A stretch of 38,055 nt of DNA from PVC group bacterium (GTDB lineage: Bacteria; Verrucomicrobiota; Kiritimatiellia; UBA8416; PXDI01): positions 1-38,055 of the forward strand of contig PXDI01000044.1 in the NCBI GenBank assembly GCA_003565095.1, read 5' to 3'. The notes beneath the pieces are model-generated. The model saw nothing but the letters and a program-made list of their open reading frames with translations. It searched no databases and was not told where the DNA came from. The position numbers and the translations under genes were made by a program. Shown piece by piece: positions 1 through 18,869 of the stretch (position 1 is its first letter; every line of letters begins with the position of its first letter).

Positions 1-521
1 AACCCGACGCCTCCGGCCGGCAGCGCCCCACCCCGATCACGGGCTCCGAATTCGATCTGGAACTGGACACACTGATCGTGGCCATCAGTGAAGAACCGGA
101 TGCCGAGGGACTGGAAGATATTGAGCGCACTAACTGGGGCACATTGAAGGCCCATCCGGAATCCTATGCCACCAGTCGTCAGGGGGTGTTTGCCGGCGGC
201 GATGTGGCAACCGGACCGGCAACGGTGATCGGTGCGGTCGGTGCAGGAAGACACGCCGCCACCATGATCGACCGTTATGTGCGCGGCATGGCGCTGCGCA
301 TTCTGCCGCGACCAGTACTGCCGGCGGTATATATAACTCCGCCGGAAGACAGCTTCAGTGAAGATGAGCTGACTCCGCGCCGGATCAATGCGCCGGAGCG
401 CCCGGTAGCGGAACGCATCCGCGGATTCGCAGAAGTTGAGCAGTGCATCAACGCCCACGACGCGGTACGAGAGGCCAGACGGTGCCTGCGTTGCGATCTG
501 GAGTTTACCGAACCGGCCTGA
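1..521 (+). CDS. GltD-like NAD(P)H-dependent oxidoreductase (glutamate synthase small-chain family), C-terminal part; 5' end lies outside the window
   Basis: The frame is open to the window start; the listed ORF 78..521 begins at an internal GTG. The translation ...EFDLELDTLIVAISEE...QGVFAGGDVATGPATVIGAVGAGRHAATMIDRY...CLRCD matches the C-terminal FAD/NAD(P)-binding region of GltD/SudA-like proteins. It lies directly upstream of an [FeFe]-hydrogenase gene. Confidence 0.6.
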   Translation, partial: PDASGRQRPTPITGSEFDLELDTLIVAISEEPDAEGLEDIERTNWGTLKAHPESYATSRQGVFAGGDVATGPATVIGAVGAGRHAATMIDRYVRGMALRILPRPVLPAVYITPPEDSFSEDELTPRRINAPERPVAERIRGFAEVEQCINAHDAVREARRCLRCDLEFTEPA

Positions 522-550
522 CCGGCGCAAATAGAAGGAATTACGACCCT

Positions 551-2320
551 ATGAGTAATCTTATAAAAAACGAGGCAGCAAAGCATGAAGGAGCGGTCAT
601 GATTACGTTGGAGGTTGATGGCAAAATAGTTGAGGCAAAGAAGGACGACACTATTCTGAGCGCGCTGAAACGTGCCGGAATTCATGTACCGACGCTCTGT
701 CACATGGAAGGACTCCCTCCCAGCGGCGCGTGCCGCCTGTGTGTTGTGGAGATTGACGGTGCGCCGGGACTTACTCCGTCGTGCTCATTCCCCGTGGCTG
801 AAGGAATGAAGATCAACACCCGCTCACCGCGGGTGATTCAGGCCCGCAAAACAATCGTCGAACTGCTGCTGGCCAACCATCCGGACGACTGCCTTTACTG
901 CGCACGCAATAACCACTGTGAGCTGCAAAGCCTGGCACATAATCTCGGTGTCCGGCAGCGGCGGCTGCAGGGCAGTAAGGCACAGCATGACATGGATGTC
1001 GGCAGCCCGTCGATTATCCGCGATCCCGACAAATGCATTCTCTGCGGACGCTGCGTACGGGTCTGTGAAGAAGTGCAGGGGGTGGCTGCCATTGATTTTG
1101 CCGAACGCGGTGCCGCCACATTTATCAGTACGGCATTCAATACCGGCCTGAATCTTTCAAGCTGCATCAATTGCGGACAATGCGTCGTGGTCTGCCCGAC
1201 CGGTGCGCTGACCGAAAACTCATCGGTTGAAGAGGTGGCCGCCGCACTGACCGACCCCGACTGTTTTGTTGTGGCGCAGCATGCACCCGCGGTATCGGTA
1301 ACGCTGGCCGAAGAATTCGACATAAAGACCGGCACCGACGTTGACGGCGCAATGGTTGCCGCACTGCGCCGGATCGGCTTTGACCGGGTTTTTGACACAT
1401 CATTCACAGCCGACCTGACCATCATGGAGGAAGGTTCGGAACTGGTGCACCGCATCAAAAACGGCGGTGCACTCCCGATGCTGACCAGTTGCAGCCCCGG
1501 CTGGATTAAGTTCGTCGAAGAATTCTACCCGGAATTCATGCCGAACCTGTCCACTTGCAAGAGTCCGCAGCAGATGATGGGCGCGATTATCAAGTCGTTT
1601 TTCGCGCAGCGCGAAGCACTCAATCCAGCACGGATTGTCTCGGTTTCCATCATGCCCTGCACCGCCAAGAAGTTCGAGTGCAGCCGGCCGGAAATGACAC
1701 AGAACCATGTGCCGGATGTCGATTACGTGCTGACCACGCGCGAGCTGGGCGAACTGCTGCGGCGTTACGGCATTGACCTGGCCGCAATGGAGCCGGAAAC
1801 AGCGGATACCCCCTTCGGAGAACGTTCAACCGCCGGAAAGATTTTCGGAGCCTCCGGCGGTGTCATGGAGGCGGCAGTGCGCAGCGCGCATTTTCTGCTG
1901 ACCGGTCGGGAAATACCCGAGCTCAAAATCCAGCCGCTGCGCGGCATGCAGGGCTGCAAGGAACTACGGGTCAATATTGACGGGATCGAACTGGGTGCGG
2001 CGGTTGTCAGCGGGCTCGGCAATGCGCGGAAACTGCTTGACGAGATTCGCAACGGGCGTGATGATCTGCATTTTATTGAAGTCATGACCTGCCCCGGCGG
2101 CTGTATTAATGGAGGCGGTCAGCCGCTGAATGCCGATATTGAGGCGGTCAAGAAGCGCATGAAGGCGCTATATGCGATCGACAGCAAGGAGCAGTTGCGG
2201 GTGAGTCACCAGAACAAGTGGGTACAAAAACTCTATGATGAATTTCTCGGCGAGCCGCTGGGAGAAACAAGTCACCGGCTGCTGCACACACATTATGCCA
2301 AGCGGGATGTTTTACTGTAG
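551..2320 (+). CDS. [FeFe]-hydrogenase catalytic subunit, CpI/HndD-like M3 architecture (2Fe-2S, His-ligated 4Fe-4S, 2x 4Fe-4S, H-domain, C-terminal small-subunit-like tail)
   Basis: N-terminal CHMEGLPPSGACRLCVVEIDG...PSC is a plant-type 2Fe-2S motif. HPDDCLYCARNNHCELQ, CILCGRCVRVCEE and CINCGQCVVVCPTGAL are further Fe-S motifs. H-cluster motifs are L1 TSCSPGW (variant), L2 MPCTAKKFE and L3 EVMTCPGGCINGGGQP, plus SGGVMEAAVR. The start is placed at ATG 551 (GAAGGA upstream); ATG 599 (AAGGAG upstream) is an alternative. The 443 start would overlap the upstream gene. Confidence 0.9.
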   Translation: MSNLIKNEAAKHEGAVMITLEVDGKIVEAKKDDTILSALKRAGIHVPTLCHMEGLPPSGACRLCVVEIDGAPGLTPSCSFPVAEGMKINTRSPRVIQARKTIVELLLANHPDDCLYCARNNHCELQSLAHNLGVRQRRLQGSKAQHDMDVGSPSIIRDPDKCILCGRCVRVCEEVQGVAAIDFAERGAATFISTAFNTGLNLSSCINCGQCVVVCPTGALTENSSVEEVAAALTDPDCFVVAQHAPAVSVTLAEEFDIKTGTDVDGAMVAALRRIGFDRVFDTSFTADLTIMEEGSELVHRIKNGGALPMLTSCSPGWIKFVEEFYPEFMPNLSTCKSPQQMMGAIIKSFFAQREALNPARIVSVSIMPCTAKKFECSRPEMTQNHVPDVDYVLTTRELGELLRRYGIDLAAMEPETADTPFGERSTAGKIFGASGGVMEAAVRSAHFLLTGREIPELKIQPLRGMQGCKELRVNIDGIELGAAVVSGLGNARKLLDEIRNGRDDLHFIEVMTCPGGCINGGGQPLNADIEAVKKRMKALYAIDSKEQLRVSHQNKWVQKLYDEFLGEPLGETSHRLLHTHYAKRDVLL

Positions 2321-2342
2321 AAAACGAAAAAAAGGAACAGAC

Positions 2343-2753
2343 ATGAGCGACAAGAAGACTATCCTGATTGTGGATGATGATCAGGATATCATTGATCAGA
2401 TTTCGATCATTCTCAAAAAACAGGGGTTCGAAGTTATTACCGCGGACGGAGAAAAAGAGGGCGAAGAGGCGCTGTTGAAAGGCGGTTTTGATCTGGCGGT
2501 TCTTGACCTGATGATGGACAACATTGATTCAGGCTTCACGCTGAGCCACCAGGCGAAGAAACTGTATCCGGAACTGCCGGTTATTCTGCTGACCGCGGTG
2601 CGGTCAGCCACCGGCCTCTCTTTTGACCCGTCATCACCGGAAGCTGCAAGCTGGATCAAGGCTGACAAGATTCTTGCAAAACCGGTGCGGTCGGAACAGT
2701 TGATTGCTGTGGTCAACCGGATGCTGGGAATTGCACCGGCTCACGCGCATTGA
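2343..2753 (+). CDS. Stand-alone response regulator receiver (REC) protein with no output domain
   Basis: MSDKKTILIVDDDQDI...DLAVLDLMMD...LLTAV...AKP is a CheY-like pattern. The protein is about 136 aa, which leaves no room for an HTH. The start is trimmed from 2235 to ATG 2343, because the extension overlaps the hydrogenase 3' end. Confidence 0.85.
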   Translation: MSDKKTILIVDDDQDIIDQISIILKKQGFEVITADGEKEGEEALLKGGFDLAVLDLMMDNIDSGFTLSHQAKKLYPELPVILLTAVRSATGLSFDPSSPEAASWIKADKILAKPVRSEQLIAVVNRMLGIAPAHAH

Positions 2754-2876
2754 TGGTTTACGCCGGAATATATGCAGCCGGATGAATCCGGCCGGCAGCA
2801 GCAGGCTTCCGGCTGATTACGGAACAACGGCGACGTACCAGTTGACCACGCGAAGTATCCGGCGAGGTGCTGTATT

Positions 2877-4877
2877 ATGGAGCGCGACAACATGGAATCT
2901 TCGAATGTTTTTCAGACTATTCAAACTGTACCGGAACGGTGCCGGGTATGTTACACCTGTGTCCGCGAGTGCCCGGCTAAAGCTATCCGTATTATAGATG
3001 GGCAGGCACGGGTCATCCATGAACGCTGCATTGGGTGCGGCAACTGCGTGCGGGTCTGTTCGCAACGTGCCAAGATAATCAAAGACACCATTCCCAATGT
3101 CCGGCGGATGCTGAAAGGCAAGGCTCCGGTGGCGGCAATGCTGGCACCCAGTTTCCCGGCCGAGTTTGCAAAAGTCGAAAGCGGGCGGCTCGTTGCCATG
3201 GTCAAGGCACTCGGCTTCGCACGTGTCAACGAGGTATCATTCGGCGCCGACCTGGTTGCCGCGGAATATCGTAAATTGGTCGAAACCACCGGAAAGTCCT
3301 ACATTGCCACCAGTTGCCCGGCAGTAATTTTCTACGTTGAAAAATATTTTCCTGAGCTGGTTGACGAGTTGGCCCCGATTGTTTCCCCGATGGTTGCCAC
3401 CGCCCGCTGCCTGCGCCACCTTTACGGCCCTGATCTACGGGTGGTTTTCATCGGCCCCTGTACCGCAAAGAAAACTGAATCAGCCGACGAACAGCTCGAG
3501 GGGGAGGTCGATGAGGCACTCACGTTTGTTGAATTACGAACCATGTTCGAGGAGGCCGGCCTCAGCCCGGAAGCAGTCAAGCCGGTTGAATTTGACGAAC
3601 CGCGCGGCGGTCTTGGCGGTCTTTTTCCGCTTAGCGGCGGACTACTGCAGGCCGCCGATATGCGTGAGGACCTGGTGGAGGAAAATGTGGTTACCGCCAC
3701 CGGCCGCAGCTTTGTGGATGCCGTCAAGGAATTCGCGTGCGGCGATATGTCAACCCGGTTGCTGGAAATTCTAGCCTGTGACGGAGCCTGTATCATGGGC
3801 GCGGGCATGAGCGTTGATACCCCGCTGTTCAGCCGCCGCAGCCAGGTCAGCCGGTATATCCGCGAAAAAATCTCACGTGAAGACACCGCGGCGCATGCAA
3901 AAAAACTCAAACAGTTTGCCGCGGTGAATCTGCGGCGCGCCTTTATGACGCGTGATCAACGCGTGAAGGCACCGCAGGCAGATGAAATTTCCGCCATTCT
4001 ACAACGGATGGGCAAGAACGCTCATGAAGATGAACTGAATTGCGGCGCCTGCGGCTATGAAACCTGCCGCGAACATGCCGTCGCCATTCATAAGGGACTG
4101 GCCGAAAGCGAGATGTGCCTGCCATACACGATTGATCAGCTCAACAGCACTATCAAAAAACTGGCCAGCACTCAGGAGGCGCTAATGCAATCTGAACGTC
4201 TCGCCAGCATGGGACAGCTTGCCGCCGGCATTGCACACGAAGTCAACAATCCGCTCGGTATCGTGCTGATGTACGCCCATCTGCTGCAAGAGGAAGCTGA
4301 GTCCAACAAGTCGATTGCTTCAGACGCAAAAATAATTGCTGAACAAGCCGACCGTTGCAAAAAGATTGTATCCGGTCTGCTGCATTTTGCCCGGCAGAAC
4401 CGCGTGCTGCGCGAACCGGCGGATATCCGGGAGGTTATAGCAAACTGCTGCCGGAATATCGTCACGCCGGGCAATATCAAGCTGGAGGTTGAACACAATC
4501 TAAACGACCCGGTTGCCGATATTGACGCCGACCAGATTGTGCAGGTGCTGACAAATCTTATCAGCAATGCACATGCCGCCATGCCTAACGGCGGCACATT
4601 GCGTATTATCGCCACGGATACCGGGGAAAATGTAGTTGTTACTGTCAGCGATACCGGTACCGGCATACCGCCTGACCTGTGCGCCAAGATTTTTGAGCCG
4701 TTCTTTACCACCAAGCATATCGGCAGCGGTACCGGTCTGGGGCTCGCCGTCACTTATGGAATTGTCAAAATGCATCAGGGCGATATCAGGGTAAAATCCA
4801 ACAGCAATCCGGCTGAAGGCCCCACCGGCACAACGTTTGAAATAGAGCTGCCGCGAAAAATGGAGGAGCAAACTTGA
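2877..4877 (+). CDS. [FeFe]-hydrogenase-like (HydS-type, putatively sensory) Fe-S protein fused to a HisKA/HATPase histidine kinase
   Basis: Two ferredoxin motifs: [12 protein letters not shown] and [11 protein letters not shown]. The H-domain-like region has ATSCPAV (single Cys), [11 protein letters not shown] and [40 protein letters not shown] gives a Cx2Cx4Cx16C motif. The H-box is [22 protein letters not shown]. The ATPase N/G boxes are [21 protein letters not shown] and [16 protein letters not shown] lies 7 nt before the ATG. Confidence 0.85.
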
Positions 4878-6028
4878 ACACACTGCGAATTCTTGCCGTG
4901 GATGACGAACAGGGAATGTTAACCGGTATTGAGCGCGCTTTGCGTAATCTGCAGGTTGAAGTTCCGGATGTCAATGAAACGGCCTGCTTCGAAATTGTCA
5001 CCGCAGCCACCGGACAGGCCGCAATCGATGAGATAAACAAGCAAACGCCTGATATTATCCTGCTGGATTACAAACTTCCCGATATGACCGGACTGGATGT
5101 TCTCAAAACCGTCAGCAACCTGAATCCACTGTTTCTGACCATTATGATTACCGCATATGCGTCAATCCAGACCGCCGTCGCGGCAACCAAACAGGGCGCA
5201 TATGATTTTCTGCCGAAGCCGTTCACGCCCGGTGACCTGAAACATGTTGTACGCAAGGCCGCCATCCGCCAGGTGCTTGCGCACCGGGCACGCGAACTGC
5301 AGGAACAAAACCGCCGGGCACGTTTCGAGTTCATCCGCGTACTGGGCCACGAACTGAAAGCCCCGCTAGCGGCCGTCAGCGGCTATCTGCATCTTATCCA
5401 CGACCGTGATCTCGGAGAGGATATCGCCGGTTATGATGAGGCGGTCGACCGCAGTCTTGTGCGCCTGGAACAAATGCGTAAACTGATTATGGACCTGCTG
5501 GACATGACCCGGCTTGAGTCCGGCGAAAAACAGCGCCGGATTGAACCCGTCGATCTTGCCGCCGCGGCACGCGACGCGCTTGATGTTGTGCGCACCGAAG
5601 CCGGTGAGCGCCGTATCACGCTCGACATTGAAGGCCCCGGACAACTCGAATTCACGGCCGACCGCGGGGAAATCGACATGGTATTCAACAACCTCATTTC
5701 AAATGCCGTGAAATACAATCGTGACGAAGGGCAGGTGCTGGTGCAACTGACCCCGCAGGATGACCATTCAGTGCAAATTCGTGTCATCGACAACGGCATC
5801 GGCATGACCGAAGAAGAACAACAGCGGCTTTTCAGCGAGTTTACCAGGATCAAGAACAAGCACACCCGTAACATTCTCGGCAGCGGGCTGGGGCTCTCCA
5901 TTCTAAGAAGGATTGCCCAGCTCTATGACGGAGAGGTCAGTGTGCAAAGTACCCCCGGCGAAGGCAGCACATTTACGGTAATTCTGCGAAAAACACCCGG
6001 TGTGACGCCGCCGACGGAAGACGCTTGA
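4874..6028 (+). CDS. Hybrid REC-HisKA-HATPase protein (N-terminal receiver fused to a histidine kinase core)
   Basis: REC: LRILAVDDEQGM...IILLDYKLPDMTG...PKPF. H-box: FIRVLGHELKAPLAAVSGYL. ATPase: NLISNAVKYN, DNGIGMT, GSGLGLSI. TTG start at 4874 is preceded by GGAGGAG and overlaps the upstream TGA stop (TTGA). Confidence 0.85.
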   Translation: MNTLRILAVDDEQGMLTGIERALRNLQVEVPDVNETACFEIVTAATGQAAIDEINKQTPDIILLDYKLPDMTGLDVLKTVSNLNPLFLTIMITAYASIQTAVAATKQGAYDFLPKPFTPGDLKHVVRKAAIRQVLAHRARELQEQNRRARFEFIRVLGHELKAPLAAVSGYLHLIHDRDLGEDIAGYDEAVDRSLVRLEQMRKLIMDLLDMTRLESGEKQRRIEPVDLAAAARDALDVVRTEAGERRITLDIEGPGQLEFTADRGEIDMVFNNLISNAVKYNRDEGQVLVQLTPQDDHSVQIRVIDNGIGMTEEEQQRLFSEFTRIKNKHTRNILGSGLGLSILRRIAQLYDGEVSVQSTPGEGSTFTVILRKTPGVTPPTEDA

Positions 6029-6036
6029 ATTGGCGC

Positions 6037-6066
6037 TTGAAACCGGCATTGTCTTATGTCTACTAT
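6037..6066 (+). promoter_or_regulatory. Candidate sigma70-like promoter for the downstream REC gene
   Basis: TTGAAA (6037-6042), an 18-nt spacer, then TACTAT (6061-6066), about 45 nt upstream of ATG 6113. This is a motif match only. Confidence 0.3.
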
Positions 6067-6112
6067 TATGGCGGTAGCAGTTTGAGATTCGATATAAGAA
6101 GGGAACTAGGAC

Positions 6113-6508
6113 ATGAAAAAGGTGTATCTGGTGGATGACGACATTGATCTGGTCAGCGTTACAAAAATAGCGCTGCAGGCCAGAGGCTTTGAAGTTGAAT
6201 CACAGTATGACGATGAGGATCTGGTGGATAACATCCGGCAGTTTAATCCTGACGCCATCATTCTTGACGTAATGTTCCCGGATGATAACGGCGCAGGCTT
6301 CAGAATGGCACGGTCAATCCGGCACCATGACGATATAAAAAACAAACCGATCATCATGCTTACAGCGGTAAACCGCGACGGCGATTTTCCGGGCAAATTC
6401 ACCGATAAGGATATTGACGACATCTACCTGCCGGTCACCCGGTTTATCGACAAACCGGTCGATCCCGACAAACTGGCGGCAACCATTAATGAGCTGACCG
6501 GAAAGTAA
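6113..6508 (+). CDS. Stand-alone response regulator receiver (REC) protein
   Basis: MKKVYLVDDDIDLV...AIILDVMFPDDNGAGF...IIMLTAV...IDKPV is a CheY-like fold pattern of 131 aa with no output domain. The gene is visibly more AT-rich than its neighbours. Confidence 0.8.
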   Translation: MKKVYLVDDDIDLVSVTKIALQARGFEVESQYDDEDLVDNIRQFNPDAIILDVMFPDDNGAGFRMARSIRHHDDIKNKPIIMLTAVNRDGDFPGKFTDKDIDDIYLPVTRFIDKPVDPDKLAATINELTGK

Positions 6509-6521
6509 AGAAACCGGGAAC

Positions 6522-6570
6522 CCGCTTCAGTGTGAGCGGCTCAAGCAGCTGCCACGTTGCGCATGGCAGC
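6522..6570. terminator. Two small hairpins in the convergent gap between the REC gene and hypB (weak terminator candidates)
   Basis: CCGCT(6522-6526)/AGCGG(6535-6539) and GCTGCCA(6548-6554)/TGGCAGC(6564-6570). There is no clear U-tract on either strand. Confidence 0.3.
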
Positions 6571-6621
6571 CGGATTCGCAGCAGGCACGCAATCTACTGT
6601 ATTAAACCGTCCGGCATGTTT

Positions 6622-7404
6622 TCAGCCCGTCAGGCCGGCCAGATATTCAATCCAGCGGTCGATGCCTTCGCCGCTTTTTGCGCTGAGTTCGAAGGTGTAG
6701 ATACCGGGATGGATTTTGCGTAGATACTCGCGACAGCGGGTCATATCGAAGTCAAGATGCGGCAGCAGATCGGTTTTGGTAATAACAACGACCGGCGCTT
6801 GTGAAAAAAGTGCGGGATATTTGACCGGTTTGTCTTCGCCTTCAGTAACCGACAACAGCGCAATTTTGAAATGCTCTCCCAGATCAAATGCGGTGGGACA
6901 AACCAGATTGCCGACATTTTCAATAAAAAGTAGTTTAACATCCGGTGTAACCACTTCCGGCAGCAGTTCCCCCACCCTTTCGGCTTCAAGATGACAGGCG
7001 CTGATCGTTTCGATCTGCCGTACCGGCGCACCTTTACCGGCCAGCCGGCGGGCGTCATTATCGGTTTGCTGGTCACCCGTAATCACCGCGCAGCCGATGC
7101 GTTCGCGCAACCGCTCTAGCGTTATTTCCAGCAACAGGGTCTTGCCGCTCCCCGGCGCGGATATCAGATTAACCGCCACGACACCGCGTTCATCCAGCCA
7201 TGCACGGTTTTTTTCAGCAAGTGTATCATTTTTTGAAAGAATCTTCTCGCGCAGCGCCACTGTCGTTTCCGCTTGGGCGTGATCGTGACGATGGTCATGG
7301 GGATGGCTATGGCCCTGCTCATGATCATGGGTATGGTCATGCCCGTGTTCGGTGTCATGATGGTGGTGGTGACTTTCGGTACCGCATCCGCATGTGTCAC
7401 ACAT
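6622..7404 (-). CDS. hypB: Hydrogenase nickel-incorporation GTPase HypB with an N-terminal CxxCGC motif and a His-rich tract
   Basis: MCDTCGCG..., the His-rich run HHHHHDTEHGHDHTHDHEQGHSHPHDHRHDH, the P-loop SAPGSGKT, and ENVGNLVCP. Start is set at ATG 7404 (GAGGAGG 6 nt upstream, 1 nt after the hypA stop) rather than 7419. Confidence 0.9.
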   Translation of the reverse strand: MCDTCGCGTESHHHHHDTEHGHDHTHDHEQGHSHPHDHRHDHAQAETTVALREKILSKNDTLAEKNRAWLDERGVVAVNLISAPGSGKTLLLEITLERLRERIGCAVITGDQQTDNDARRLAGKGAPVRQIETISACHLEAERVGELLPEVVTPDVKLLFIENVGNLVCPTAFDLGEHFKIALLSVTEGEDKPVKYPALFSQAPVVVITKTDLLPHLDFDMTRCREYLRKIHPGIYTFELSAKSGEGIDRWIEYLAGLTG

Positions 7405-7405
7405 T

Positions 7406-7756
7406 TCAGTCCTCCTCAATCAAGGTTACCGTTTCTATCAGTAATTCACGCCCCTGTATAATCCGCACATCCGCCGATTCACAGTGAGCACAAACCGCAA
7501 AACAATTCTCCGGCTGCGACTCGCAACCGCAGGCACTGCAATGTATTTTGGCAGCCACCGGCACAATTTTCCACTCCGTTTTTCTCAGCGCGGTGTTTTC
7601 AACAACCAGCGGCAGTGCCTGCCGCAGCGCGGTACAATCGATCCCAGCCAGGCTGCCAACCTGCAAAACAACACGGCTTACCCTGGACGAATGCCGCTCA
7701 TTCCGCAGATTCTCGACCCTTTCAACCACTGCCTGGGCTATTGATAACTCATGCAT
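7406..7756 (-). CDS. hypA: Hydrogenase nickel-insertion protein HypA
   Basis: MHELSIAQAVV N-terminus and the zinc motifs CSACG...CAHC, in a protein of about 116 aa. Confidence 0.9.
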   Translation of the reverse strand: MHELSIAQAVVERVENLRNERHSSRVSRVVLQVGSLAGIDCTALRQALPLVVENTALRKTEWKIVPVAAKIHCSACGCESQPENCFAVCAHCESADVRIIQGRELLIETVTLIEED

Positions 7757-7765
7757 AAACTATTT

Positions 7766-8794
7766 TCAACATATTCGTGGCAGAATCTCGCCGCCGGGAA
7801 GATCGACTATGCGGCGACCGCCGGTCACTGTCAGCGCGGCCACCAGCCCGGCCAGCGGCGCTTCCGCGGAAACATGCCCCAAACGCGCCGCCTGTGCACC
7901 ACCGGGCAGTTTACTCCATGCACCCAAAATGGCATCCGCGGCACCGGCCGCGCATACCAGCAGCACACGCCCTTCACAGGCGGCATACAACGGATCCAGT
8001 CCCAGCATATCGGCAACCGCCTGCGTTCCCGGCGCCAACGGCAGGCATGTCTCGTCAATTTCAATGCCGGCGGAGGTTGCACCTTCCACCATTTCGTTCA
8101 GCACCGCCGCAACTCCGCCGCGGGTCGGATCACGCATAAAGCGTACCTCCGCCGCATACGGCAGAGCCGCGTCAACAAACGGGTAAACGGAGGCGCAGTC
8201 ACTCACCGGCCCGCCCGCCGCCATGCCGTTCCGCGCCGCCATAATCGCCATGCCGTGATCACCGAGCGTGCCGCTTATCAGAATCACGTCACCGGGACGC
8301 ACCGCCGCGGCATCCAGCCGCCAGTCCTCGACACGTTCGCCAATACAAGCGGTATTAATATACAGCCCGTCGCATTTACCGCGCTCGACAACTTTAGTGT
8401 CGCCGGTGGCAACAACTACATCCGCCTTCGCAGCGGCATCCCTGACGGCATCAAGCACCCGGTCAAGCACAGCGAACGGCAGCCCCTCTTCCAATATCAG
8501 CGCTAGGGAAAGCCAGCGCGGCCAGCCGCCGGCGACCGCCACATCATTGATGCTGCCATGCACAGCCAGATGCCCGATGTTACCACCGGGGAACTCCAAC
8601 GGGGAAACCACAAAACTGTCGGTCGAGAAAACCACCTCACCGGAATTGGCAGACAGGGTCGCGGCATCCGGCAGCCCGCGTAAAGGACCGTCACCAAAAC
8701 GGCTGACAACCGCCATGTTGATCAGCTCACGCGACAGCCTTCCGCCCCCGCCGTGACCAAGTTGAACAGTATCCGGTTTCATGTATTTTCCCAA
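7766..8794 (-). CDS. hypE: Hydrogenase maturation protein HypE (carbamoyl dehydratase)
   Basis: AIR-synthase-like fold pattern and the diagnostic C-terminal ...PRIC. Confidence 0.9.
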   Translation of the reverse strand: MGKYMKPDTVQLGHGGGGRLSRELINMAVVSRFGDGPLRGLPDAATLSANSGEVVFSTDSFVVSPLEFPGGNIGHLAVHGSINDVAVAGGWPRWLSLALILEEGLPFAVLDRVLDAVRDAAAKADVVVATGDTKVVERGKCDGLYINTACIGERVEDWRLDAAAVRPGDVILISGTLGDHGMAIMAARNGMAAGGPVSDCASVYPFVDAALPYAAEVRFMRDPTRGGVAAVLNEMVEGATSAGIEIDETCLPLAPGTQAVADMLGLDPLYAACEGRVLLVCAAGAADAILGAWSKLPGGAQAARLGHVSAEAPLAGLVAALTVTGGRRIVDLPGGEILPRIC

Positions 8795-9910
8795 TCAGTA
8801 AGCATGTTGTCTAATATCGCGAAATTTATATGCCGCCGCACATGATCCTTCGGCACTGACCATACATGGCCCGACCGGATCATCCGGTGTGCATACCTTT
8901 GCAAACAGCGGACAGGCGGCAGGATTCAGTTTGCCTTTAATGACATCGCCGCAACAGCAGGCGGCATGTTCAACACCGGGGCCGATTGTGACTCCAAACC
9001 GTACCGCCGCATCGCGAGAGCTGTAAGCCTTTTTCAAACGCAACCCGCTGGCAGGAATAACCCCCAGACCGCGCCAAAGCGCATCTTCCGGTTCAAGCAG
9101 CCGTTGAAACAGCACCTGAGCGCGGCGGTTGCCTCCGGCTGTAACCACGCGCGAATACTGGTTTTCCACTTCTGCGCGTCCCTCGATTATCTGCCGCAGC
9201 AGCCCTTCGATGCCCAGCAATATATCCAGCGGTTCAAAACCGGCCACCACGCACGGTATTCCGTGCTGCCGCGCATACGGCAGATAGGCATCCGCACCGA
9301 TAATCGCGCTGACATGCGCGGGACACATAAAACCGTCGATGCGCAGTTCCGGGTCGGCAATCAGCGCATCCATTGCGGGCGGAATGGTCTTGAATGAAGT
9401 CAACAAGGAAAGATTCCCGATTTTTCGCTCATCCGCCAGCGGCACCAGGCCGGCGACCGGAGCGGTCGTGGTTTCAAAGCCGATGGCAAGAAACACGCAT
9501 TCGCGTTGCGGTTCAGCAGCGGCAATTTGTAAGGCATCCAGAGCGGAGTAGACCACCCGGATATCACCGCCGGCTGCGCGGGCGCGGGCCAGTGAAGACC
9601 GGGACCCCGGCACATGGAGCATGTCACCAAAGGAAATCATTATAACGCCCTGCCGGGCCAGCTCGATCGCTGCATCCAGATAGCCGGCCGGGGTCACGCA
9701 GACCGGACAGCCCGGACCGCTCACCAGCGCTACACCCTCGGGCAAAGCCTCACGGATGGCATAGCGCGCAATCGCCATGGTGTGGGAACCACACACCTCC
9801 ATAAACGTAACCCCGTTACCGTCTTTCAATGAAGACTGCCCCAGCAGACGCAGTTTTTCCACAAGCGCGCGGGCGGCACGCGGTTCCCTGAATCCTTCGA
9901 TATATTTCAT
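8795..9910 (-). CDS. hypD: Hydrogenase maturation protein HypD
   Basis: MKYIEGFR...EVCGSHT..., GPGCPVCVTP, FETT and C-terminal cysteines. Its start is abutted by the hypC stop (ATGA overlap at 9907-9910). Confidence 0.9.
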   Translation of the reverse strand: MKYIEGFREPRAARALVEKLRLLGQSSLKDGNGVTFMEVCGSHTMAIARYAIREALPEGVALVSGPGCPVCVTPAGYLDAAIELARQGVIMISFGDMLHVPGSRSSLARARAAGGDIRVVYSALDALQIAAAEPQRECVFLAIGFETTTAPVAGLVPLADERKIGNLSLLTSFKTIPPAMDALIADPELRIDGFMCPAHVSAIIGADAYLPYARQHGIPCVVAGFEPLDILLGIEGLLRQIIEGRAEVENQYSRVVTAGGNRRAQVLFQRLLEPEDALWRGLGVIPASGLRLKKAYSSRDAAVRFGVTIGPGVEHAACCCGDVIKGKLNPAACPLFAKVCTPDDPVGPCMVSAEGSCAAAYKFRDIRQHAY

Positions 9911-10140
9911 GTACGCACCGCTCCGGCCGCCGCCAGATCGGAAAAAAGCTCCAGCCGTGCATTGGCCTCTTCCACGTCCAGCCGTTCAATCGCAAATCCG
10001 GCATGAACAATAACAAAATCCCCCGGGCGGGGATTCTCGATCAGGCTTACATCAACCTCAAGCCGGCTGCCACCCAACTCAACCGTGGCAGTGGAGACTG
10101 TTTTCACTTCTATAATCTGCATCGGTACAGCTAAGCACAT
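9907..10140 (-). CDS. hypC: Hydrogenase maturation chaperone HypC
   Basis: MCLAVPMQIIEV N-terminus (essential Cys2). Start is trimmed to ATG 10140. It overlaps the hypF stop by 10 nt. Confidence 0.85.
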   Translation of the reverse strand: MCLAVPMQIIEVKTVSTATVELGGSRLEVDVSLIENPRPGDFVIVHAGFAIERLDVEEANARLELFSDLAAAGAVRT

Positions 10141-12452
10141 ATTCTCCCCGCAATTACCGCCTGGCCGAATGCAATGCACCCATCCCCGGGCGGTATCCGG
10201 TGATGGACAAGTACCTTAGCCGGCATGGCCGTCAGGCGCACCTGCAACAGCCGCGTTAATATTTCATTCATAAATACACCGCCCGAAAGCGCCACGGTGC
10301 GTTCCTTGCAAAAATCAAACGCATATTCTACCATAGAAATCACTGCCGACGCAACCGCCAGGTGCAATGCCATGGCCTGCCGCGGTATATATTCAGGATT
10401 ATCCCGCTCGACCGCTCTGCGGAAGGCTTCGGCCCAGTCTATTTGCAGCATCCCGTCTTGAACAGCGGCGGCGAAAGGCAGCTCGGGCAGGCTGACCGTG
10501 GCGGGACAAAGACGGGCGGCGGATTCCAGACGGATCGCAGGCTGCCCGTCATAGGTAGCCACCGCCCCGGCGGCACCAATCCCGACAGCAAAAGCGTCAA
10601 ACAAGCGACCCGCCGCGTGGGTCAGCGGTGCATTGATTCCGGCCTCCGCCTGACCGCCCCAGGTGTCAAAGGCCGCCTCATCCATATTCAGGCGCTGCCG
10701 CCAGGCCGGATTGTAGCGGATACCGTATGCACGGCAGCGGGCGGCAAACTGCCGGACAGGAAACCGCACCGCATTATCACCGCCGGGTAGCGCCACCGGT
10801 TTAAAGGTCGCAAGCCGGCGGAATCCGTCCGGGGTAACGTGTAACAGCTCAGCACCCCAGATATTACCATCCGCACCATAGCCGCTTCCGTCAAATGTTA
10901 CAGCCAGTCCGCTTGTACAGCCGTGTTCGGCCAGACAAGCGGCCGCATGGGCATGATGATGCTGCACATGCTGCAAAGCACAACCGTATTGGCGTGCCAG
11001 TGTTACGCCCAGGCGTGTGGAGTGCATATCAGGATGCAGATCAACAGCAATGCAGCCGGGGTTGAACGCCAGAAACTCAGGCAGTTCCCCGGCCACCCGC
11101 CGCAAACCGGCCAGCGCCTCGGGTGTATCCAGATCGCCGACATGCGGTGAAAGCACCACCCGGTCGTCATGACCGGCCGCAATCGCATTTTTCATTTCAG
11201 CGCCCAGCGCCAGCACCGGCCGCGACAGCCGACACGAAAGCAACAGCGGTGTTGGCGCATAACCACGCGCACGCCGCCAGACTTGCGGCTGGTCGCCGCG
11301 CAGCACACACACCGAATCGTCATTACGCAGGTTAATCTCACGGTTATGCATCAGGAAACAATCCACCAGACCGCTCAATCGCTCAACCGCCTCTTCATTG
11401 GTAATGCAAAGCGGTTCACCGCGGCGGTTACCGCTGGTCATCACAAGCCAGCGCAACGGCGGCACAGGATCGTCAGGCAGAGGCTGAAAAAGCAGCAGAT
11501 GCAACGGTGAAGTCGGCAGCATAACTCCCAACGAAGCACTGTCCGGAGATATCACGTCAACCGGCAGACCGCTCTCGGTAATATCGCCGCGTAACGGCAG
11601 GATCACTATCGGCCCGGCCGGCGAAGCCAGTAGTGTTTCCGCCGCCGGACCGGTCTCGCATACGGAACCGACCGTCTCGATTGATGCGGCCATCAAAGCA
11701 AACGGCTTATGCGGACGCTGCTTACGCTGCCGCAGACGGCAGATTGTTTCGCGATTGGCGGCATCTGCCGCCAGCAGGTAGCCGCCAATACCGCGTACCG
11801 CAACAATACCGCCGGCGTCCAGTACCGACCGGGCATACGCTAAAGGCTGCGCAACGCTCAAACGCCGCCCGGCGGCATCCGCAACATGCAAAGCCGGCCC
11901 GCAGGCCGGACAGGCAATACTTTCCGCATGAAAACGGCGGTCGGCGGGGTCAGTGTATTCGCGCCGGCAATCCGAACATAATGGAAACGCTTTCAGCGTG
12001 GTGCGCTCCCGGTCATAAGGCATCTTTTCCACCACGGTGTAACGCGGACCGCAAACGGTACAGGTGGTGAACGGATAACCGAACCGCCGGTCACCGGGAT
12101 CAAGCACTTCACGCCGGCAGTCATCACACATACGCAAATCCGGCGGAATCACAACAGCCAGTCCGGCACCGGTCCGGCTGGAAACAATCTGGAATTCACC
12201 TGAAGGGACATCGATTGACTCACAGGCGGTTTCGCTTAGCGCTGCCAATACCCCCGGCGGCGGAAACTGTGACTGTAATGCGGCAATAAAACCCTCAACA
12301 GCATTAGCGGGACCTTCAAGCACCAGCCGTACCGAACCGGAACGGTTCTGCGCTGAACCGCCGAGCTTCCATTCACCGGCCAGCCGGTGCAGCACGGGAC
12401 GTAAACCAATCCCCTGAACAATGCCGGTCAGTTCATAGGTTTTACGAATCAC
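10131..12452 (-). CDS. hypF: Carbamoyltransferase HypF
   Basis: Acylphosphatase-like N-terminus (GIVQGIGLRP), paired zinc-finger motifs (CDDCRREVLDPGDRRFGYPFTTCTVCGPRY; CSDCRREYTDPADRRFHAESIACPACGP), and YrdC-like and Kae1-like regions. 773 aa. Confidence 0.9.
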   Translation of the reverse strand: MIRKTYELTGIVQGIGLRPVLHRLAGEWKLGGSAQNRSGSVRLVLEGPANAVEGFIAALQSQFPPPGVLAALSETACESIDVPSGEFQIVSSRTGAGLAVVIPPDLRMCDDCRREVLDPGDRRFGYPFTTCTVCGPRYTVVEKMPYDRERTTLKAFPLCSDCRREYTDPADRRFHAESIACPACGPALHVADAAGRRLSVAQPLAYARSVLDAGGIVAVRGIGGYLLAADAANRETICRLRQRKQRPHKPFALMAASIETVGSVCETGPAAETLLASPAGPIVILPLRGDITESGLPVDVISPDSASLGVMLPTSPLHLLLFQPLPDDPVPPLRWLVMTSGNRRGEPLCITNEEAVERLSGLVDCFLMHNREINLRNDDSVCVLRGDQPQVWRRARGYAPTPLLLSCRLSRPVLALGAEMKNAIAAGHDDRVVLSPHVGDLDTPEALAGLRRVAGELPEFLAFNPGCIAVDLHPDMHSTRLGVTLARQYGCALQHVQHHHAHAAACLAEHGCTSGLAVTFDGSGYGADGNIWGAELLHVTPDGFRRLATFKPVALPGGDNAVRFPVRQFAARCRAYGIRYNPAWRQRLNMDEAAFDTWGGQAEAGINAPLTHAAGRLFDAFAVGIGAAGAVATYDGQPAIRLESAARLCPATVSLPELPFAAAVQDGMLQIDWAEAFRRAVERDNPEYIPRQAMALHLAVASAVISMVEYAFDFCKERTVALSGGVFMNEILTRLLQVRLTAMPAKVLVHHRIPPGDGCIAFGQAVIAGRICA

Positions 12453-12919
12453 GGCTTATCCATTTCCGCCACGGCGGCGGCAACATAATCATCCATCCGT
12501 GCGGCAAGAGCCGCCGAAAGACCGCCATCCATTTGCATGGAGAGCGGCTGGACCGCAAGAATGCGGATTTGCGGAACCGGCAGCCCCAGAGTCCGGCCCA
12601 TTTCAATCAACCGCAAGACGTCGCCTTCGTGTGTTGAGATACCGCCGGCATATTTACGGGTTTCCACGTCCTCCGGCGCAAAGAAAATAAACTCACCCGG
12701 CGCCCCCCCGAAATCAACGGCATCCACAATCAGGAGTTTATCGGTTTCGGCGCTAAAATAAGTGAGCACCAGCATGCCGTCATTGCCGGCCTCTACCACA
12801 GTGAAACGCCGGTCCAGACCGCGGTCGGCAATCTGCTCGACAATCTGCAGCCCGATGCCGTCATCCCCCATCGCATAATTGCCGAGCCCCAGTATGTACC
12901 GCCGGGATTGACTTGTCAC
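12449..12919 (-). CDS. [NiFe]-hydrogenase maturation endopeptidase (HyaD/HoxW/FrhD family)
   Basis: ILGLGNYAMGDDGIGLQIVE...LLIVDAV...HEGDV in a protein of about 156 aa. It has 4-nt overlaps with both neighbours. The large subunit carries the matching DPCxxCxxH plus C-terminal tail substrate. Confidence 0.8.
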   Translation of the reverse strand: MTSQSRRYILGLGNYAMGDDGIGLQIVEQIADRGLDRRFTVVEAGNDGMLVLTYFSAETDKLLIVDAVDFGGAPGEFIFFAPEDVETRKYAGGISTHEGDVLRLIEMGRTLGLPVPQIRILAVQPLSMQMDGGLSAALAARMDDYVAAAVAEMDKP

Positions 12920-14256
12920 TTTCTGAATGTCACATCCAGATAGTGCGTTGAACAGGAAATGCAGGGATCATAGCCTCTGACCAGCATCTCCAGCCGCAGC
13001 TCCATCTGCTTTTCGGTTAAATCCTGCGCCAGCATTTCCTGCACCATTTTATCAAAATCGCACTGGATATTAGCATGATTCTGGTTAGTCGGAATAATGC
13101 AGTTGCCCATTTCACACATGCCGTCGCTGTCGTACGCATATTCATGAAAGAGAATACCGCGCGGCACATCAGCCGCACCGGCACCGCGTCCGTAGCTTGA
13201 CGGGGCAACCGGTTTTTCATCCTTCAGCCCGACAGTCAATAGTTCATCAATATATTCAACCGCCATATAAACGCAGTGAACCGCCTCAATAAACTGCGCA
13301 ACGCTGTTCATGTACGGGTTACAGCAGATCGGCTTGAAGCCGAGTCCGTCAGCCAGTTTGCGGGCCTCGGGATGCAGCCGGGCATGATTGATATTCAACC
13401 GGGCCAGTGCGCCGACCATATAACTGTCCAGCTTGTGCTTCGCGAACTTGGCGGTAGACTGATCCGTCACATACTCATTGGTAACGGTGCGGTAGTCCTG
13501 CACATCCACCATTTCAAGCGAACCGTCCGGCAGCAGACAACCGATCGCTCCGTCATATAAACCGTACTCCAATTCATCCACCAGTCCGACAAATTCGGTG
13601 GGACGTTCAAATGCGGGGATATTGCCGGCCAACTCGCACAGCAGCTTATAGGTTTCAACCGCATCAGGAACAACCGCCAGCAGTTTATCTTTCAGCTCGC
13701 GCAGATGCGCCTCCGCTTCACGGACGGTGCGTGCCCCACCGGGCAGACTGGCAAACCCGCCGACAACCGGCCGCGTCGGATGGGTGGTACGTCCACCGAG
13801 GCACGCCCCCCATTCATGACCGAGGCGTTTCATGCGTAAAGCGCGCTTGACCACATCGCCATGCGTCGGCACCAGCGGGAATACGGAAGGCGCCCCCAGC
13901 AGATCAGGCGCAATCAGAAAATAAACATGCAGCACATGCGAGTCATAGTTTTCGGCATGTTTAAGAATACGTCGTAAACGATCGGTCTGATGCGAGACTT
14001 TAATTCCCAGCGCTTTTTCCGATGCCTTCAGCGAGGCCAGTGTATGGCCGACAGAACAGATGCCGCAAATGCGACTGGTAATGCGTGCCACTTCGCTGTA
14101 ATGGCGGCCGCGCACCATCGCCTCGAAAAACCGCGGTGCCTCCGGCACCTGCCATTCGCATTTTTCGACGGTACCGTCGGTAACATTTACAACAATGTTG
14201 CCGTGGCCCTCGACACGTGTGAGATGGTGTACGTTGATATTGACGTTTTTACTCAT
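12916..14256 (-). CDS. hydA: [NiFe]-hydrogenase large (alpha) subunit, group 3b / sulfhydrogenase-like
   Basis: RVEGHG, RICGICSVGH (L1) and DPCISCSTH (L2), followed by an 8-aa cleavable tail. The gene order beta-gamma-delta-alpha matches Pyrococcus-type hydBGDA. Confidence 0.9.
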   Translation of the reverse strand: MSKNVNINVHHLTRVEGHGNIVVNVTDGTVEKCEWQVPEAPRFFEAMVRGRHYSEVARITSRICGICSVGHTLASLKASEKALGIKVSHQTDRLRRILKHAENYDSHVLHVYFLIAPDLLGAPSVFPLVPTHGDVVKRALRMKRLGHEWGACLGGRTTHPTRPVVGGFASLPGGARTVREAEAHLRELKDKLLAVVPDAVETYKLLCELAGNIPAFERPTEFVGLVDELEYGLYDGAIGCLLPDGSLEMVDVQDYRTVTNEYVTDQSTAKFAKHKLDSYMVGALARLNINHARLHPEARKLADGLGFKPICCNPYMNSVAQFIEAVHCVYMAVEYIDELLTVGLKDEKPVAPSSYGRGAGAADVPRGILFHEYAYDSDGMCEMGNCIIPTNQNHANIQCDFDKMVQEMLAQDLTEKQMELRLEMLVRGYDPCISCSTHYLDVTFRK

Positions 14257-15005
14257 TATGCATCACCCCTGAAGTTGGCCGTGAACATGCGGGAAAGGTT
14301 TTCCGCGCGCTGTTGCGGTAGTTTTCCATTATCGACAAGAACTTTAACCATGGCTTCCTGATTGGGCTGTTCGGCGAGACCGCGGCAGGCTTCGCACGGA
14401 ATCCCGTCGGCCGGACACGGAGCCCCGCATCCTGCCCGCGCAATCGGCCCCAGACAGTATTCCCCGTCGTCATAGCGGCAGACTGTCTCGCGGCGTTTGC
14501 ACTCAACACAAACCGGATAGCTGGGCACATACACCTTCGCCGTGCCATGCACCACCTGCTGAACTATGCGCAGCAACTCATCCCGGTCCATCGGACAGCC
14601 GCGCACCTCATAGTCCACCTTGATTGCCGCCGAAACCGGCAGTGCTTTCGCCGAATTCAGATGCGGACGGTCCTTGTCGGCTCCGTAAACCTCCCCGGCA
14701 TAATCATCCATATGGTTTTTCAAGGCGTTGATTCCGCCGCTGGTGGCGCAGGATCCGTAAGCCACAACCACTTTGGCCCGCGCACGGATTTCCTCGAGGC
14801 GCCGCCGGTCAGCCTCACGGGTAAAAGAACCTTCAATAAAAGCCACATCAATCGGTCCGGTTGTTTTTTCCGACATGACCTCGCGGAACTCAACCGGTTC
14901 AAGATGCTCCAACAGTTGAACAAAAGGCTCACCGTAGTTGGTCAACTCGACCTGACAGCCCTCACAACAGGCAAAATCAAACCATGCACATTTCAGTTTA
15001 GCCAT
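14256..15005 (-). CDS. hydD: [NiFe]-hydrogenase small (delta) subunit, group 3b-like
   Basis: N-terminal FACCEGCQ proximal-cluster motif, GSCATSGG, and further Cys clusters. TAATG overlaps occur at both ends. Confidence 0.85.
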   Translation of the reverse strand: MAKLKCAWFDFACCEGCQVELTNYGEPFVQLLEHLEPVEFREVMSEKTTGPIDVAFIEGSFTREADRRRLEEIRARAKVVVAYGSCATSGGINALKNHMDDYAGEVYGADKDRPHLNSAKALPVSAAIKVDYEVRGCPMDRDELLRIVQQVVHGTAKVYVPSYPVCVECKRRETVCRYDDGEYCLGPIARAGCGAPCPADGIPCEACRGLAEQPNQEAMVKVLVDNGKLPQQRAENLSRMFTANFRGDA

Positions 15006-15853
15006 TAGATTGCCTCCTCAAGATTCTCAATGTCAGAAAAACGAAACACCGGGCCGTCTAGGCAGACATATTTGTCATTGATCTGGCAATGTCCGCACTT
15101 GCCGACCCCGCATTTCATGCGGCGCTCAAGATCAACAAAAACATGACCGCGCGGAACTTTCAACTTATCGAGTTCGGCAATCACAAACTTATACATAACC
15201 GGCGGCCCGCAGATGATAACATGGGTATCCGGGCCGATGCCTGCTGCCTGCGGGAACAGCGTAGTGATGACCCCCACGTTCCCCTGCCAGGCTTTATCAG
15301 GCCGGTCAACTGTCTCAAAATAGTGCACATCAGTGCTGGCGCGCCACTGCTCAAGATCCTCTTCAAACAACAGATCCTGCGGTGTGCGCGCACCGAAGAA
15401 CAGGGTAAACCGCCCGAACTCGCCGCGATGCTGAAGAATGTACTGAATCATGCTGCGCACCGGACATAAGCCGATGCCGCCGGCAATAATCAGAATATCT
15501 TTGCCTTTCAGTTCATCGACCGGAAAACCGTTGCCGAAAGGACCGCGCACCGTCATCGTGTCACCGGTATTCAATTCACATAAGGCCTGAGAGACCTTGC
15601 CGATATTACGCACTACAATATCAAACGTCTTTGCGTTCACCGGGGAACTTGACAGCCCCAGCGGAATTTCACCGAAACCGAATCGCCCGGCTTCAATAAT
15701 CTGTCCGGGCTGATAATCAAACATGTCACCATTATTCAATCGCAGGGTAAAATGTTTCTCCGTGGGGGTCACCATTTGTGCATTGACAACTTCCGCCGCC
15801 TTCGGCATGAAGATACCCGGATCCGTCTTTTCTTTGCTGTTTTTGCAACTCAT
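15005..15853 (-). CDS. hydG: Hydrogenase gamma subunit, FAD/NAD(P)-binding ferredoxin-reductase-like with a C-terminal 2Fe-2S motif
   Basis: Flavin-reductase-like pattern (GPFG, IAGGIGLCP) and C-terminal CGVGKCGHCQ...C. Confidence 0.85.
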   Translation of the reverse strand: MSCKNSKEKTDPGIFMPKAAEVVNAQMVTPTEKHFTLRLNNGDMFDYQPGQIIEAGRFGFGEIPLGLSSSPVNAKTFDIVVRNIGKVSQALCELNTGDTMTVRGPFGNGFPVDELKGKDILIIAGGIGLCPVRSMIQYILQHRGEFGRFTLFFGARTPQDLLFEEDLEQWRASTDVHYFETVDRPDKAWQGNVGVITTLFPQAAGIGPDTHVIICGPPVMYKFVIAELDKLKVPRGHVFVDLERRMKCGVGKCGHCQINDKYVCLDGPVFRFSDIENLEEAI

Positions 15854-15854
15854 A

Positions 15855-18778: not shown

Positions 18779-18822
18779 GCTCAGCCCTTTCTCCCCTCCA
18801 CACAACCACTGAATAATGTGAC

Positions 18823-18850
18823 ATATTATCGCCACACGCGCGCATGTCAA
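18823..18850 (-). promoter_or_regulatory. Candidate sigma70-like promoter of the antiporter gene
   Basis: On the - strand: TTGACA (18850-18845), a 16-nt spacer, then TAATAT (18828-18823), about 45 nt upstream of ATG 18778. Confidence 0.45.
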
Positions 18851-18869
18851 GATTGCGGCTCCGGCAGCC

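Follow-up and report, generated by a model that had tools for sequence, protein, structure and literature searches.

What does a hydrogenase-like protein sense when it is joined to a histidine kinase, and what does it control when none of the proteins encoded around it carries an output domain? These questions are raised by a four-gene cassette in a 38,055-nt stretch of DNA from a member of the Kiritimatiellia (Verrucomicrobiota), namely positions 1 to 38,055 of the forward strand of contig PXDI01000044.1 (assembly GCA_003565095.1), hereafter called the window. The cassette encodes HydS-HK, in which a sensory [FeFe] hydrogenase module is followed by a histidine kinase (HK), two single-domain response regulators consisting of a receiver domain (REC1 and REC3), and REC-HK, a receiver joined to a second kinase; the coordinates are collected in Table 1. 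I consider it probable, though far from settled, that HydS-HK is an H2- or redox-responsive kinase that feeds a receiver relay controlling the [FeFe] hydrogenase encoded in the same operon.

Architecture and class of HydS-HK

An open reading frame (ORF) check recovered all four cassette genes exactly where the original prediction, made from the sequence letters alone, had placed them. Searches with the hidden Markov models of Pfam and NCBIfam bore out the architecture proposed there, including the absence of a PAS domain and the REC-only flanks: Pfam gave no PAS match in HydS-HK, and none of the four cassette proteins matched a DNA-binding or enzymatic output domain in either database. HydS-HK has a full predicted ligand set, with sites for an H-cluster and for three [4Fe-4S] clusters, two of them N-terminal and one C-terminal. 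The eight ferredoxin-type cysteines at the N-terminus are invariant in alignment A1. The C-terminal Cx2Cx4Cx16C motif is exact (C389 to C414), as had been claimed, and its four cysteines are invariant in an alignment of 168 sequences.

A sensory H-domain, HisKA and HATPase_c lie in one ORF, as expected of the histidine kinase-linked class known from previous work (PMC5037454, PMC11406978, PMC7768429), and its sequence places HydS-HK in this HydDB group C1-like branch, one of those formed by putative sensory [FeFe] hydrogenases. It shares a ~30-aa deletion in the H-domain with PAS-type HydS proteins, and it fell inside a kinase-type subclade of a rough neighbour-joining (NJ) tree of 140 sensor modules that had three group A H-domains as its root and was calculated with no bootstrap and without Nar1 or TmHydS references. 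Domain matches, residue alignment, conservation across the 168 sequences and the tree together support the earlier proposal of a HydS-type (group C-like) sensory module joined directly to what appears to be a competent class I histidine kinase. The AlphaFold2 (AF2) model (mean predicted local distance difference test score 83.5) superposed on [FeFe] hydrogenases over 370-440 columns with a Foldseek TM-score of up to 0.69 relative to DdH, and no HydS-type structure was among its PDB matches.

Residues of the H-cluster site

Residue-level alignment to solved hydrogenases placed A-T-S-C-P of HydS-HK on their T-S-C-C-P without any deletion. This register puts Ser146 at the position of the proton relay cysteine (C299 of the hydrogenase CpI) and makes Cys147 the cubane ligand C300, while C195, C301 and C305 correspond to CpI C355, C499 and C503. 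All four H-cluster cysteines and the loss of the relay cysteine, both part of the original prediction, were thereby recovered. K198 corresponds to K358 and is kept; G193 and L299 occupy the positions of M353 and M497. HydS-HK retains equivalents of E279 and S319 from the group A proton pathway but none of E282 and R286. The alignment thus shows a predicted absence of the fast proton relay, with Ser in place of C299 and the E282 and R286 residues changed.

The same pattern runs through the family. The four H-cluster cysteines, K198, E201, S170, G193 and L299 are 100% conserved in the 168 relatives, A90-P91-S92 (the CpI 230-232 region) is invariant, and the position of CpI C299 is occupied by T, S, A or D but never by Cys. 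The combination of Gly at 353, Leu at 497 and a residue other than Cys at 299 matches the published description of sensory enzymes: HydS of Thermotoga maritima (TmHydS) has Gly at M353 and HydS of Thermoanaerobacter mathranii (TamHydS) has Leu at M497, and both bind the H-cluster and turn over slowly (PMC8163306, PMC10055695).

Linker and kinase core

The distance between the last Fe-S cysteine and the phospho-accepting histidine is 40 residues in 26 sequences including that of the window, 47 in 141 and 54 in one, which are exact heptad steps, and a series of 33/40/47/54/68 dominates in a wider set of representatives. The AF2 model has helices at residues 415-430 and 435-476. A length that varies in heptad steps, together with a predicted helix, is characteristic of a signalling helix formed as a continuous coiled coil, and this argues for mechanical coupling between the Fe-S domain and the DHp domain.

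The kinase boxes (H454, N560, D592xGxG and G616xGxG) are invariant in alignment A1, and the H-box AHExNNPL is 100% conserved in the 168 sequences. The core is of the AtoS/ZraS/NtrB type, with ZraS as the closest solved kinase (E 9e-36, TM-score 0.82); kinases of this type are usually partnered by sigma54 activators.

Receiver partners

REC1 is the orthologue of the receiver that lies between HydS-HK and REC-HK in most relatives, although it stands before the kinase in the window; the downstream receivers of other loci match it best, with 44-52% identity, and the positions of D11, D12, D55, T84 and K113 are conserved in 40-41 of 41 single receivers. The TTG start of REC-HK overlaps the stop codon of HydS-HK (TTGA) behind a GGAGGAG Shine-Dalgarno sequence, so that REC-HK is, on the face of its sequence, translationally coupled to HydS-HK as originally proposed, and its receiver and kinase catalytic residues are conserved in 53-54 of 54 REC-HKs. 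A PAS domain separates the receiver from HisKA in the second kinase of Ignavibacteriota and Actinomycetota. REC3-like genes are found in some lineages only: Ignavibacteriota have them behind REC-HK, Bacteroidota and Actinomycetota ahead of hydC.

The acidic pair, the phospho-acceptor Asp, Thr/Ser and Lys are present in all three receivers of the window. Given the conservation of receiver and kinase residues in the partners, a real multi-step relay is likely, in agreement with the relay through REC-only partners first suggested for this cassette.

Eight Chloroflexota loci (L054-L060 and L067) carry Cache-HAMP kinases that share ~45% identity with the kinase core (residues 393-662), and there, too, a REC-HK comes next. 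These have the kinase core alone in common with HydS-HK and were left out of the family statistics, but they make the kinase/REC-HK pair look like a portable module for different sensors.

Distribution and operon context

The protein database contained >120 full-length (~665 aa) relatives with 59-72% identity and the same Pfam architecture, those closest to the window protein coming from metagenome-assembled genomes (MAGs) of Planctomycetota/Phycisphaerae and Verrucomicrobiota. A true orthologue was present in about 55 of the loci found by a scan limited to one genome per species; every one of these lies in a MAG, and together they are spread over at least eight phyla, including Planctomycetota, Verrucomicrobiota, Bacteroidota, Ignavibacteriota, Actinomycetota, Latescibacterota and Hydrogenedentota. 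Among these loci are also some whose MAGs carry the labels Nitrospirales, Gemmatimonas, Clostridiales and Anaeromyxobacteraceae.

When only the sensor half served as the query, 1.84 billion representatives yielded 1,043 clusters at E<=1e-30. Among the best 150 representatives (P0121-P0270), 43 carried HisKA/HATPase and 14 a direct fusion to a sigma54 AAA+ activator; PAS domains occurred in no fewer than 30, roughly a fifth to a quarter, and GGDEF, MCP or REC domains in a few. With so many fusion partners, the sensor is an input module of general use, one of whose commonest forms is the kinase fusion. The sigma54 AAA+ fusions are one-component proteins with HTH_8 and fall in the same clade of the NJ tree as the kinase fusions.

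The gene order around the orthologues was strongly conserved. The sensor kinase directly follows hydC-hydB-hydA, which encode a trimeric enzyme with NuoE/NuoF-type partners that is bifurcating-like, in 45 of the 55 loci, and seven of the other ten are cut at a contig edge. REC-HK comes after the sensor in 53 of 55, and a REC1 orthologue lies between both kinases in about 44, often with a 4-nt overlap. The string continues with hydG, hydE, an aspartase-like gene and hydF in about 25 loci, and in 22 a rex-like gene stands first in the operon or comes after REC-HK. The cassette is therefore a regular part of the [FeFe] hydrogenase operon. In the window, the gap between hydA and REC1 is only 22 nt, from which I infer that the cassette is probably co-transcribed with hydA. 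A promoter and terminator scan of positions 1-7000 gave counts at chance level, and neither the 123-nt gap before hydS-HK nor the convergent gap after REC3 folded better as RNA than shuffled sequences did.

This context changes two points of the original prediction. The cassette had been described as wedged between an [FeFe] and a [NiFe] hydrogenase locus, yet such a cassette is what usually makes up the 3' part of the [FeFe] operon, with hydG/E/F immediately behind it in relatives. Both flanking operons had been named as likely targets; synteny in 45 of 55 loci strongly supports the [FeFe] operon, whereas a neighbourhood of [NiFe] group 3b and hyp genes was seen in the window only, among the loci compared. 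Two loci, L003 (4320-13365) and L009 (4285-13233), have the sensor kinase and REC-HK divergent from a Hox-type [NiFe] hydrogenase, so association with [NiFe] enzymes is possible but not the rule. Their Hox genes encode a HoxEF fusion, HoxU, HoxY and HoxH; a protein with a C-terminal receiver is encoded there as well, and no [FeFe] HydA is in view. The window departs from the usual locus in having REC1 before the kinase, the extra REC3, a GltD-like partner tail, and hydG/E/F out of view.

Two Bacteroidota loci encode a second, PAS-type HydS without a kinase, divergent from hydC (L020, 545-2401, minus strand; L023, 3119-5155, minus strand), and have two different [FeFe]-type sensors per hydrogenase operon, the kinase-type one after hydA. 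The PAS-type HydS of L020 lacks the cysteine equivalent to C499.

Proposed mechanism

In the mechanism proposed here, the H-cluster would react slowly and reversibly with H2, or would come to equilibrium, by way of the N-terminal clusters, with the reduced ferredoxin/NADH pool. The sensor and its C-terminal Fe-S domain would change as a result, and this change may travel along the dimeric coiled coil and reach the DHp helix as a rotation or a piston movement, which would alter autophosphorylation of His454. Phosphoryl groups would pass to REC1 and/or to the receiver of REC-HK, the latter acting as a second-tier kinase gated by its own receiver, and REC3 could serve as a lineage-specific extra sink or connector. 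Since the cassette holds no output domain, the terminal regulator would be encoded elsewhere, most plausibly as an NtrC-type sigma54 activator; or else the receivers might act by protein-protein contact. The main function under control would be the co-operonic NAD(P)H/ferredoxin-linked [FeFe] hydrogenase together with its maturases.

Counter-evidence and alternative explanations

A number of results weigh against this mechanism. Motif L3 of the H-cluster site, canonically Cx3C, reads C-x-G-C (Cx2C) in 165 of the 168 relatives and likewise in 42 of 42 kinase-type representatives with a detectable motif, which makes [2Fe] binding by the kinase-fused clade only putative. The motifs P1-P3 were hardly found in C1 proteins by a 2024 survey (PMC11406978), a difficulty that the Cx2C spacing probably explains, and hydE, hydF and hydG do not lie in the window. 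In TamHydS, 1 atm H2 does not reduce the C-terminal cluster (PMC13104023), so that a simple model in which the redox state of this cluster equals the signal is unlikely; the PF04060 domain may be a structural transmitter, not a redox switch. An NtrC-type neighbour was seen in one locus only (L004), sigma54-like sites before hydC were found in four of 37 loci against about 2.4 expected and are not general, and in the window the sigma54 consensus gave fewer matches than shuffled sequences, none of them sensibly placed near the cassette, while the Rex operator consensus gave three weak matches (chance level). The literature search found no biochemical or genetic study of the kinase-fused form.

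The window protein differs from its family in L3. Its motif has the Cx3C spacing (C301-D-G-A-C305, 3777-3791; DNA gcc tgt gac gga gcc tgt), and only P0033 and P0054 also have an additional residue at this place. In the NJ tree, the kinase- and sigma54-fused forms and some ~600-aa PAS forms made up one Cx2C clade, and ~575-aa forms, about 30-40% of which scored a PAS match, made up a Cx3C group. Because the window protein is nested in the kinase clade, its Cx3C is a secondary one-residue insertion. The extra Ala codon stands in a gcctgt...gcctgt context. Conceivably, the H-cluster of the Cx2C clade has a geometry that is non-canonical and suited to sensing.

Much of this would suit a sensor of the redox pool, with an H-domain that carries the [4Fe-4S] cubane only, in the manner of Nar1/NARF and with no [2Fe], and with a four-cluster chain that reports the reduction state of ferredoxin or HydABC to the kinase. 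The Cx2C spacing, the elusive P1-P3 motifs (PMC11406978) and a window without hydE/F/G all point this way, as does the CpI M497L variant, which fails to hold [2Fe] according to a citation in PMC10055695, Leu being invariant at this position here. TamHydS, however, has Leu at M497 yet binds [2Fe] (PMC8163306), the residues that contact the cyanide ligands or [2Fe] (K358, the A-P-S of the 230-232 region, and E361) are invariant, and the window protein itself has the canonical Cx3C; hydG/E/F also occur in the same string in about 25 relatives, though HydA needs them anyway. A cubane-only sensor is doubtful, if worth keeping in mind. A further alternative, a catalytically relevant hydrogenase with an incidental or degenerate kinase domain, could appeal to the low H2 turnover of TmHydS and TamHydS (PMC8163306, PMC10055695), but it is very hard to reconcile with a relay cysteine that is absent in 168 of 168 relatives, invariant H, N, G1 and G2 boxes, conserved dedicated receiver partners and a bona fide HydA encoded next door, and I give it next to no weight.

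A different use of the same parts would be an accessory subunit that is docked on the bifurcating hydrogenase and senses electron flux, with the receivers acting post-translationally on the enzyme or on Rex. There is precedent in the name 'BfuT' proposed for C3 proteins and in the treatment of C3 sensors as a T subunit (PMC11406978), and docking fits the strict adjacency and frequent overlap with hydA and receiver genes, the rex gene that opens the operon or directly follows REC-HK in 22 loci, and the lack of an output domain in any conserved member; no response regulator with a DNA-binding or enzymatic output was conserved across the 55 loci. Obligate docking on HydABC is at odds with relatives that lie beside Hox [NiFe] genes or without hydA in view (L044), complex formation is putative on sequence grounds, and fusions of the same sensor to sigma54 activators point to transcriptional outputs, all of which makes a docked subunit unlikely. 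Similarly improbable is the related idea that the trio of HydS-HK, REC and REC-HK needs no transcription factor at all, stand-alone receivers, phosphorylated in response to H2 or redox state, tuning the bifurcating hydrogenase or the Rex repressor of the same operon directly; if true, electron bifurcation would be under a post-translational control that responds to hydrogen. The idea that an NtrC-type regulator generally neighbours the cassette was considered and rejected, as such a gene occurred once only. In that locus, L004, the regulator is divergent and a perfect sigma54 promoter, TGGCAC-N5-TTGC, lies 46 nt before hydC. A direct sensor kinase that answers to H2 or redox state and acts on its own operon through the receivers remains the preferred explanation.

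Surroundings of the cassette

Table 1. Features of the cassette and its neighbours in the window.
Feature	Coordinates	Strand	Evidence
3' end of GltD-like (Pyr_redox_2) gene upstream of hydA	78..521	+	weak Pfam matches Pyr_redox_2, Fer4_20
hydA, group A [FeFe] catalytic subunit, 573 aa from ATG 599 (ORF opens at GTG 443)	599..2320	+	
REC1, single-domain response regulator	2343..2753	+	Response_reg E 6e-17
HydS-HK, predicted sensory [FeFe] hydrogenase module + histidine kinase, 666 aa	2877..4877	+	Pfam, NCBIfam, alignments, AF2
HydS-HK, N-terminal 2x[4Fe-4S] ferredoxin-like domain, residues 17-64	2925..3068	+	Fer4_10 and Fer4 matches
HydS-HK, H-domain Fe_hyd_lg_C, residues 84-309	3126..3803	+	Pfam E 6e-48, full model
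HydS-HK, C-terminal Cx2Cx4Cx16C [4Fe-4S] motif, PF04060, residues 387-416	4035..4124	+	Pfam E 9e-9
HydS-HK, helical linker, C414 to phospho-accepting His454	4119..4235	+	offset counts; AF2 helices
HydS-HK, kinase core, HisKA 445-507 + HATPase_c 550-661	4209..4859	+	Pfam
REC-HK, Response_reg (D65) + HisKA (H159) + HATPase_c	4874..6028	+	Pfam
REC3, second single-domain receiver (D52), accessory	6113..6508	+	Response_reg only
hypB, hypA, hypE, hypD, hypC, hypF	6622..12452	-	NCBIfam equivalogs; convergent with cassette
HycI-like protease + four-subunit sulfhydrogenase-like (group 3b-type) [NiFe] hydrogenase	12449..16877	-	

HydA gave matches to Fe_hyd_lg_C (E 6e-96) and Fe_hyd_SSU and scored 839 bits with the NCBIfam A6 'NADH-dependent' model (cutoff 765); the HydA proteins of related loci are 42-68% identical to it. 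Its L1 motif reads TSCSPGW (1484-1504, residues 296-302) instead of TSCCPxW, which by register puts Ser at the cubane-ligand position (CpI C300). TSCSP[GA]W was seen in 26 of 49 sensor-adjacent HydAs of related loci, and the TSCSP variant has been noted in trimeric confurcating hydrogenases (PMC3787301).

The gene fragment upstream of hydA probably encodes a NuoF/GltD-type partner subunit of the [FeFe] hydrogenase, homologous fragments being named NuoF or GltD-like by their sources. The GltD-like tail replaces the plain C-terminus of HydB (NuoF) and suggests a NuoF-GltD fusion partner that is possibly NADPH-linked; no equivalent was found among 75 related loci. In L044, a GltD-like gene directly precedes the sensor kinase.

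The hyp and [NiFe] genes are context and lie outside the conserved system. All hyp genes scored above their NCBIfam cutoffs except hypA (74.6 bits, cutoff 88.1), and the [NiFe] subunits had their best matches to Shy/Hyd alpha, delta, gamma and beta, below the equivalog cutoffs. A Na+/H+ exchanger fused to phosphotransferase system EIIA-2 is encoded directly upstream of the [NiFe] operon (17051-19132, minus strand). Further on, a PIN-domain toxin and a MazE/PrlF-type antitoxin (20149-20940, minus strand) lie between an aminotransferase gene and hemB, and a tetrapyrrole cluster (20807-30564, minus strand) comprises hemB, a hemC-cobA-hemD fusion, a sirC-like/hemA fusion, a NirDL-like siroheme decarboxylase and two radical S-adenosylmethionine genes, which looks like a siroheme-dependent alternative haem pathway.

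Comparison with known systems

The HoxBC/HupUV-HoxJ/HupT-HoxA/HupR systems follow the same logic, in that a slow hydrogenase-like sensor acts through a kinase on hydrogenase genes, and HoxJ/HupT and HydS-HK both have the kinase type that pairs with NtrC-family regulators. This is an analogy only: HoxBC/HupUV is a [NiFe] group 2b sensor with a separate, PAS-bridged kinase and an adjacent, known NtrC-type regulator, whereas the sensor of the window is an [FeFe] H-domain fused to its kinase and the adjacent [NiFe] enzyme is sulfhydrogenase-like. Nor is the window cassette a canonical two-component system with a transcriptional output. In this respect it resembles Leptospira LvrA/LvrB and Myxococcus RedCDEF, where a sensor kinase likewise comes together with stand-alone receivers and a REC-HisKA-HATPase protein in an operon that lacks a DNA-binding member. 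The structural and NCBIfam matches of the kinase core included LvrB, and orthology with LvrA/LvrB and RedCDEF extends to generic domains only.

TmHydS (group C, M2f) shares with HydS-HK the two [4Fe-4S] clusters, the short H-domain and the Cx2Cx4Cx16C motif. Gly replaces M353 in both, but C299 is Ala in TmHydS and Ser in the window, M497 is Ser and Leu, respectively, and TmHydS ends in a PAS domain with no kinase. TamHydS (group D, M2e) is closer in lacking PAS, in having Leu at M497 and in its C-terminal Fe-S motif, and it is encoded beside a bifurcating hydrogenase; it has Ser at the M353 position where the window protein has Gly, and its HATPase-type kinase-like protein is the product of a separate gene, unlike the single polypeptide with a heptad-phased helix described here. 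TmHydS and TamHydS offer no readable output, and the favoured signal, redox change at the C-terminal cluster, has been undermined by a 2026 study. A sensor and kinase in one chain would allow H2 sensing to be read biochemically and directly through autophosphorylation, and the family analysis supplies the handles: a mutable heptad-phased linker, a natural Cx3C/Cx2C pair, defined receivers and a conserved target operon.

The closest match is a class that already has a name. The original prediction implied a rare protein, but HydDB lists '[FeFe] C1, histidine kinase-linked (putative)' (PMC5037454), 53 Hydrogenedentota C1 proteins with HATPase_c, 21 of them adjoining A3 hydrogenases, were reported in 2024 (PMC11406978), a kinase-linked C1 gene lies near hnd in Petrimonas mucosa (ING2E5A_0849; PMC7768429), and 43 of the 150 best sensor representatives carry HisKA/HATPase. 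Members of the class are very frequent among the uncultured fermenters that live in sediments, digesters and guts, and their function bears on how the partial pressure of H2 controls fermentation. As in the window, C1 proteins combine a sensory H-domain with a histidine kinase beside a bifurcating (A3/Hnd-type) [FeFe] hydrogenase, and a Hydrogenedentota MAG protein (L009) is 57% identical to the window protein. Nothing of substance sets the window apart from C1 beyond its Cx3C motif, REC1 before the kinase, REC3, the GltD-like partner and the [NiFe] 3b/hyp neighbourhood. The kinase-fused class is thus already known, and the window is an ordinary representative that adds little beyond one more member; what the present analysis adds to the class is the heptad-phased linker, the conserved trio of kinase, receiver and receiver-kinase, the Cx2C clade and the operon context.

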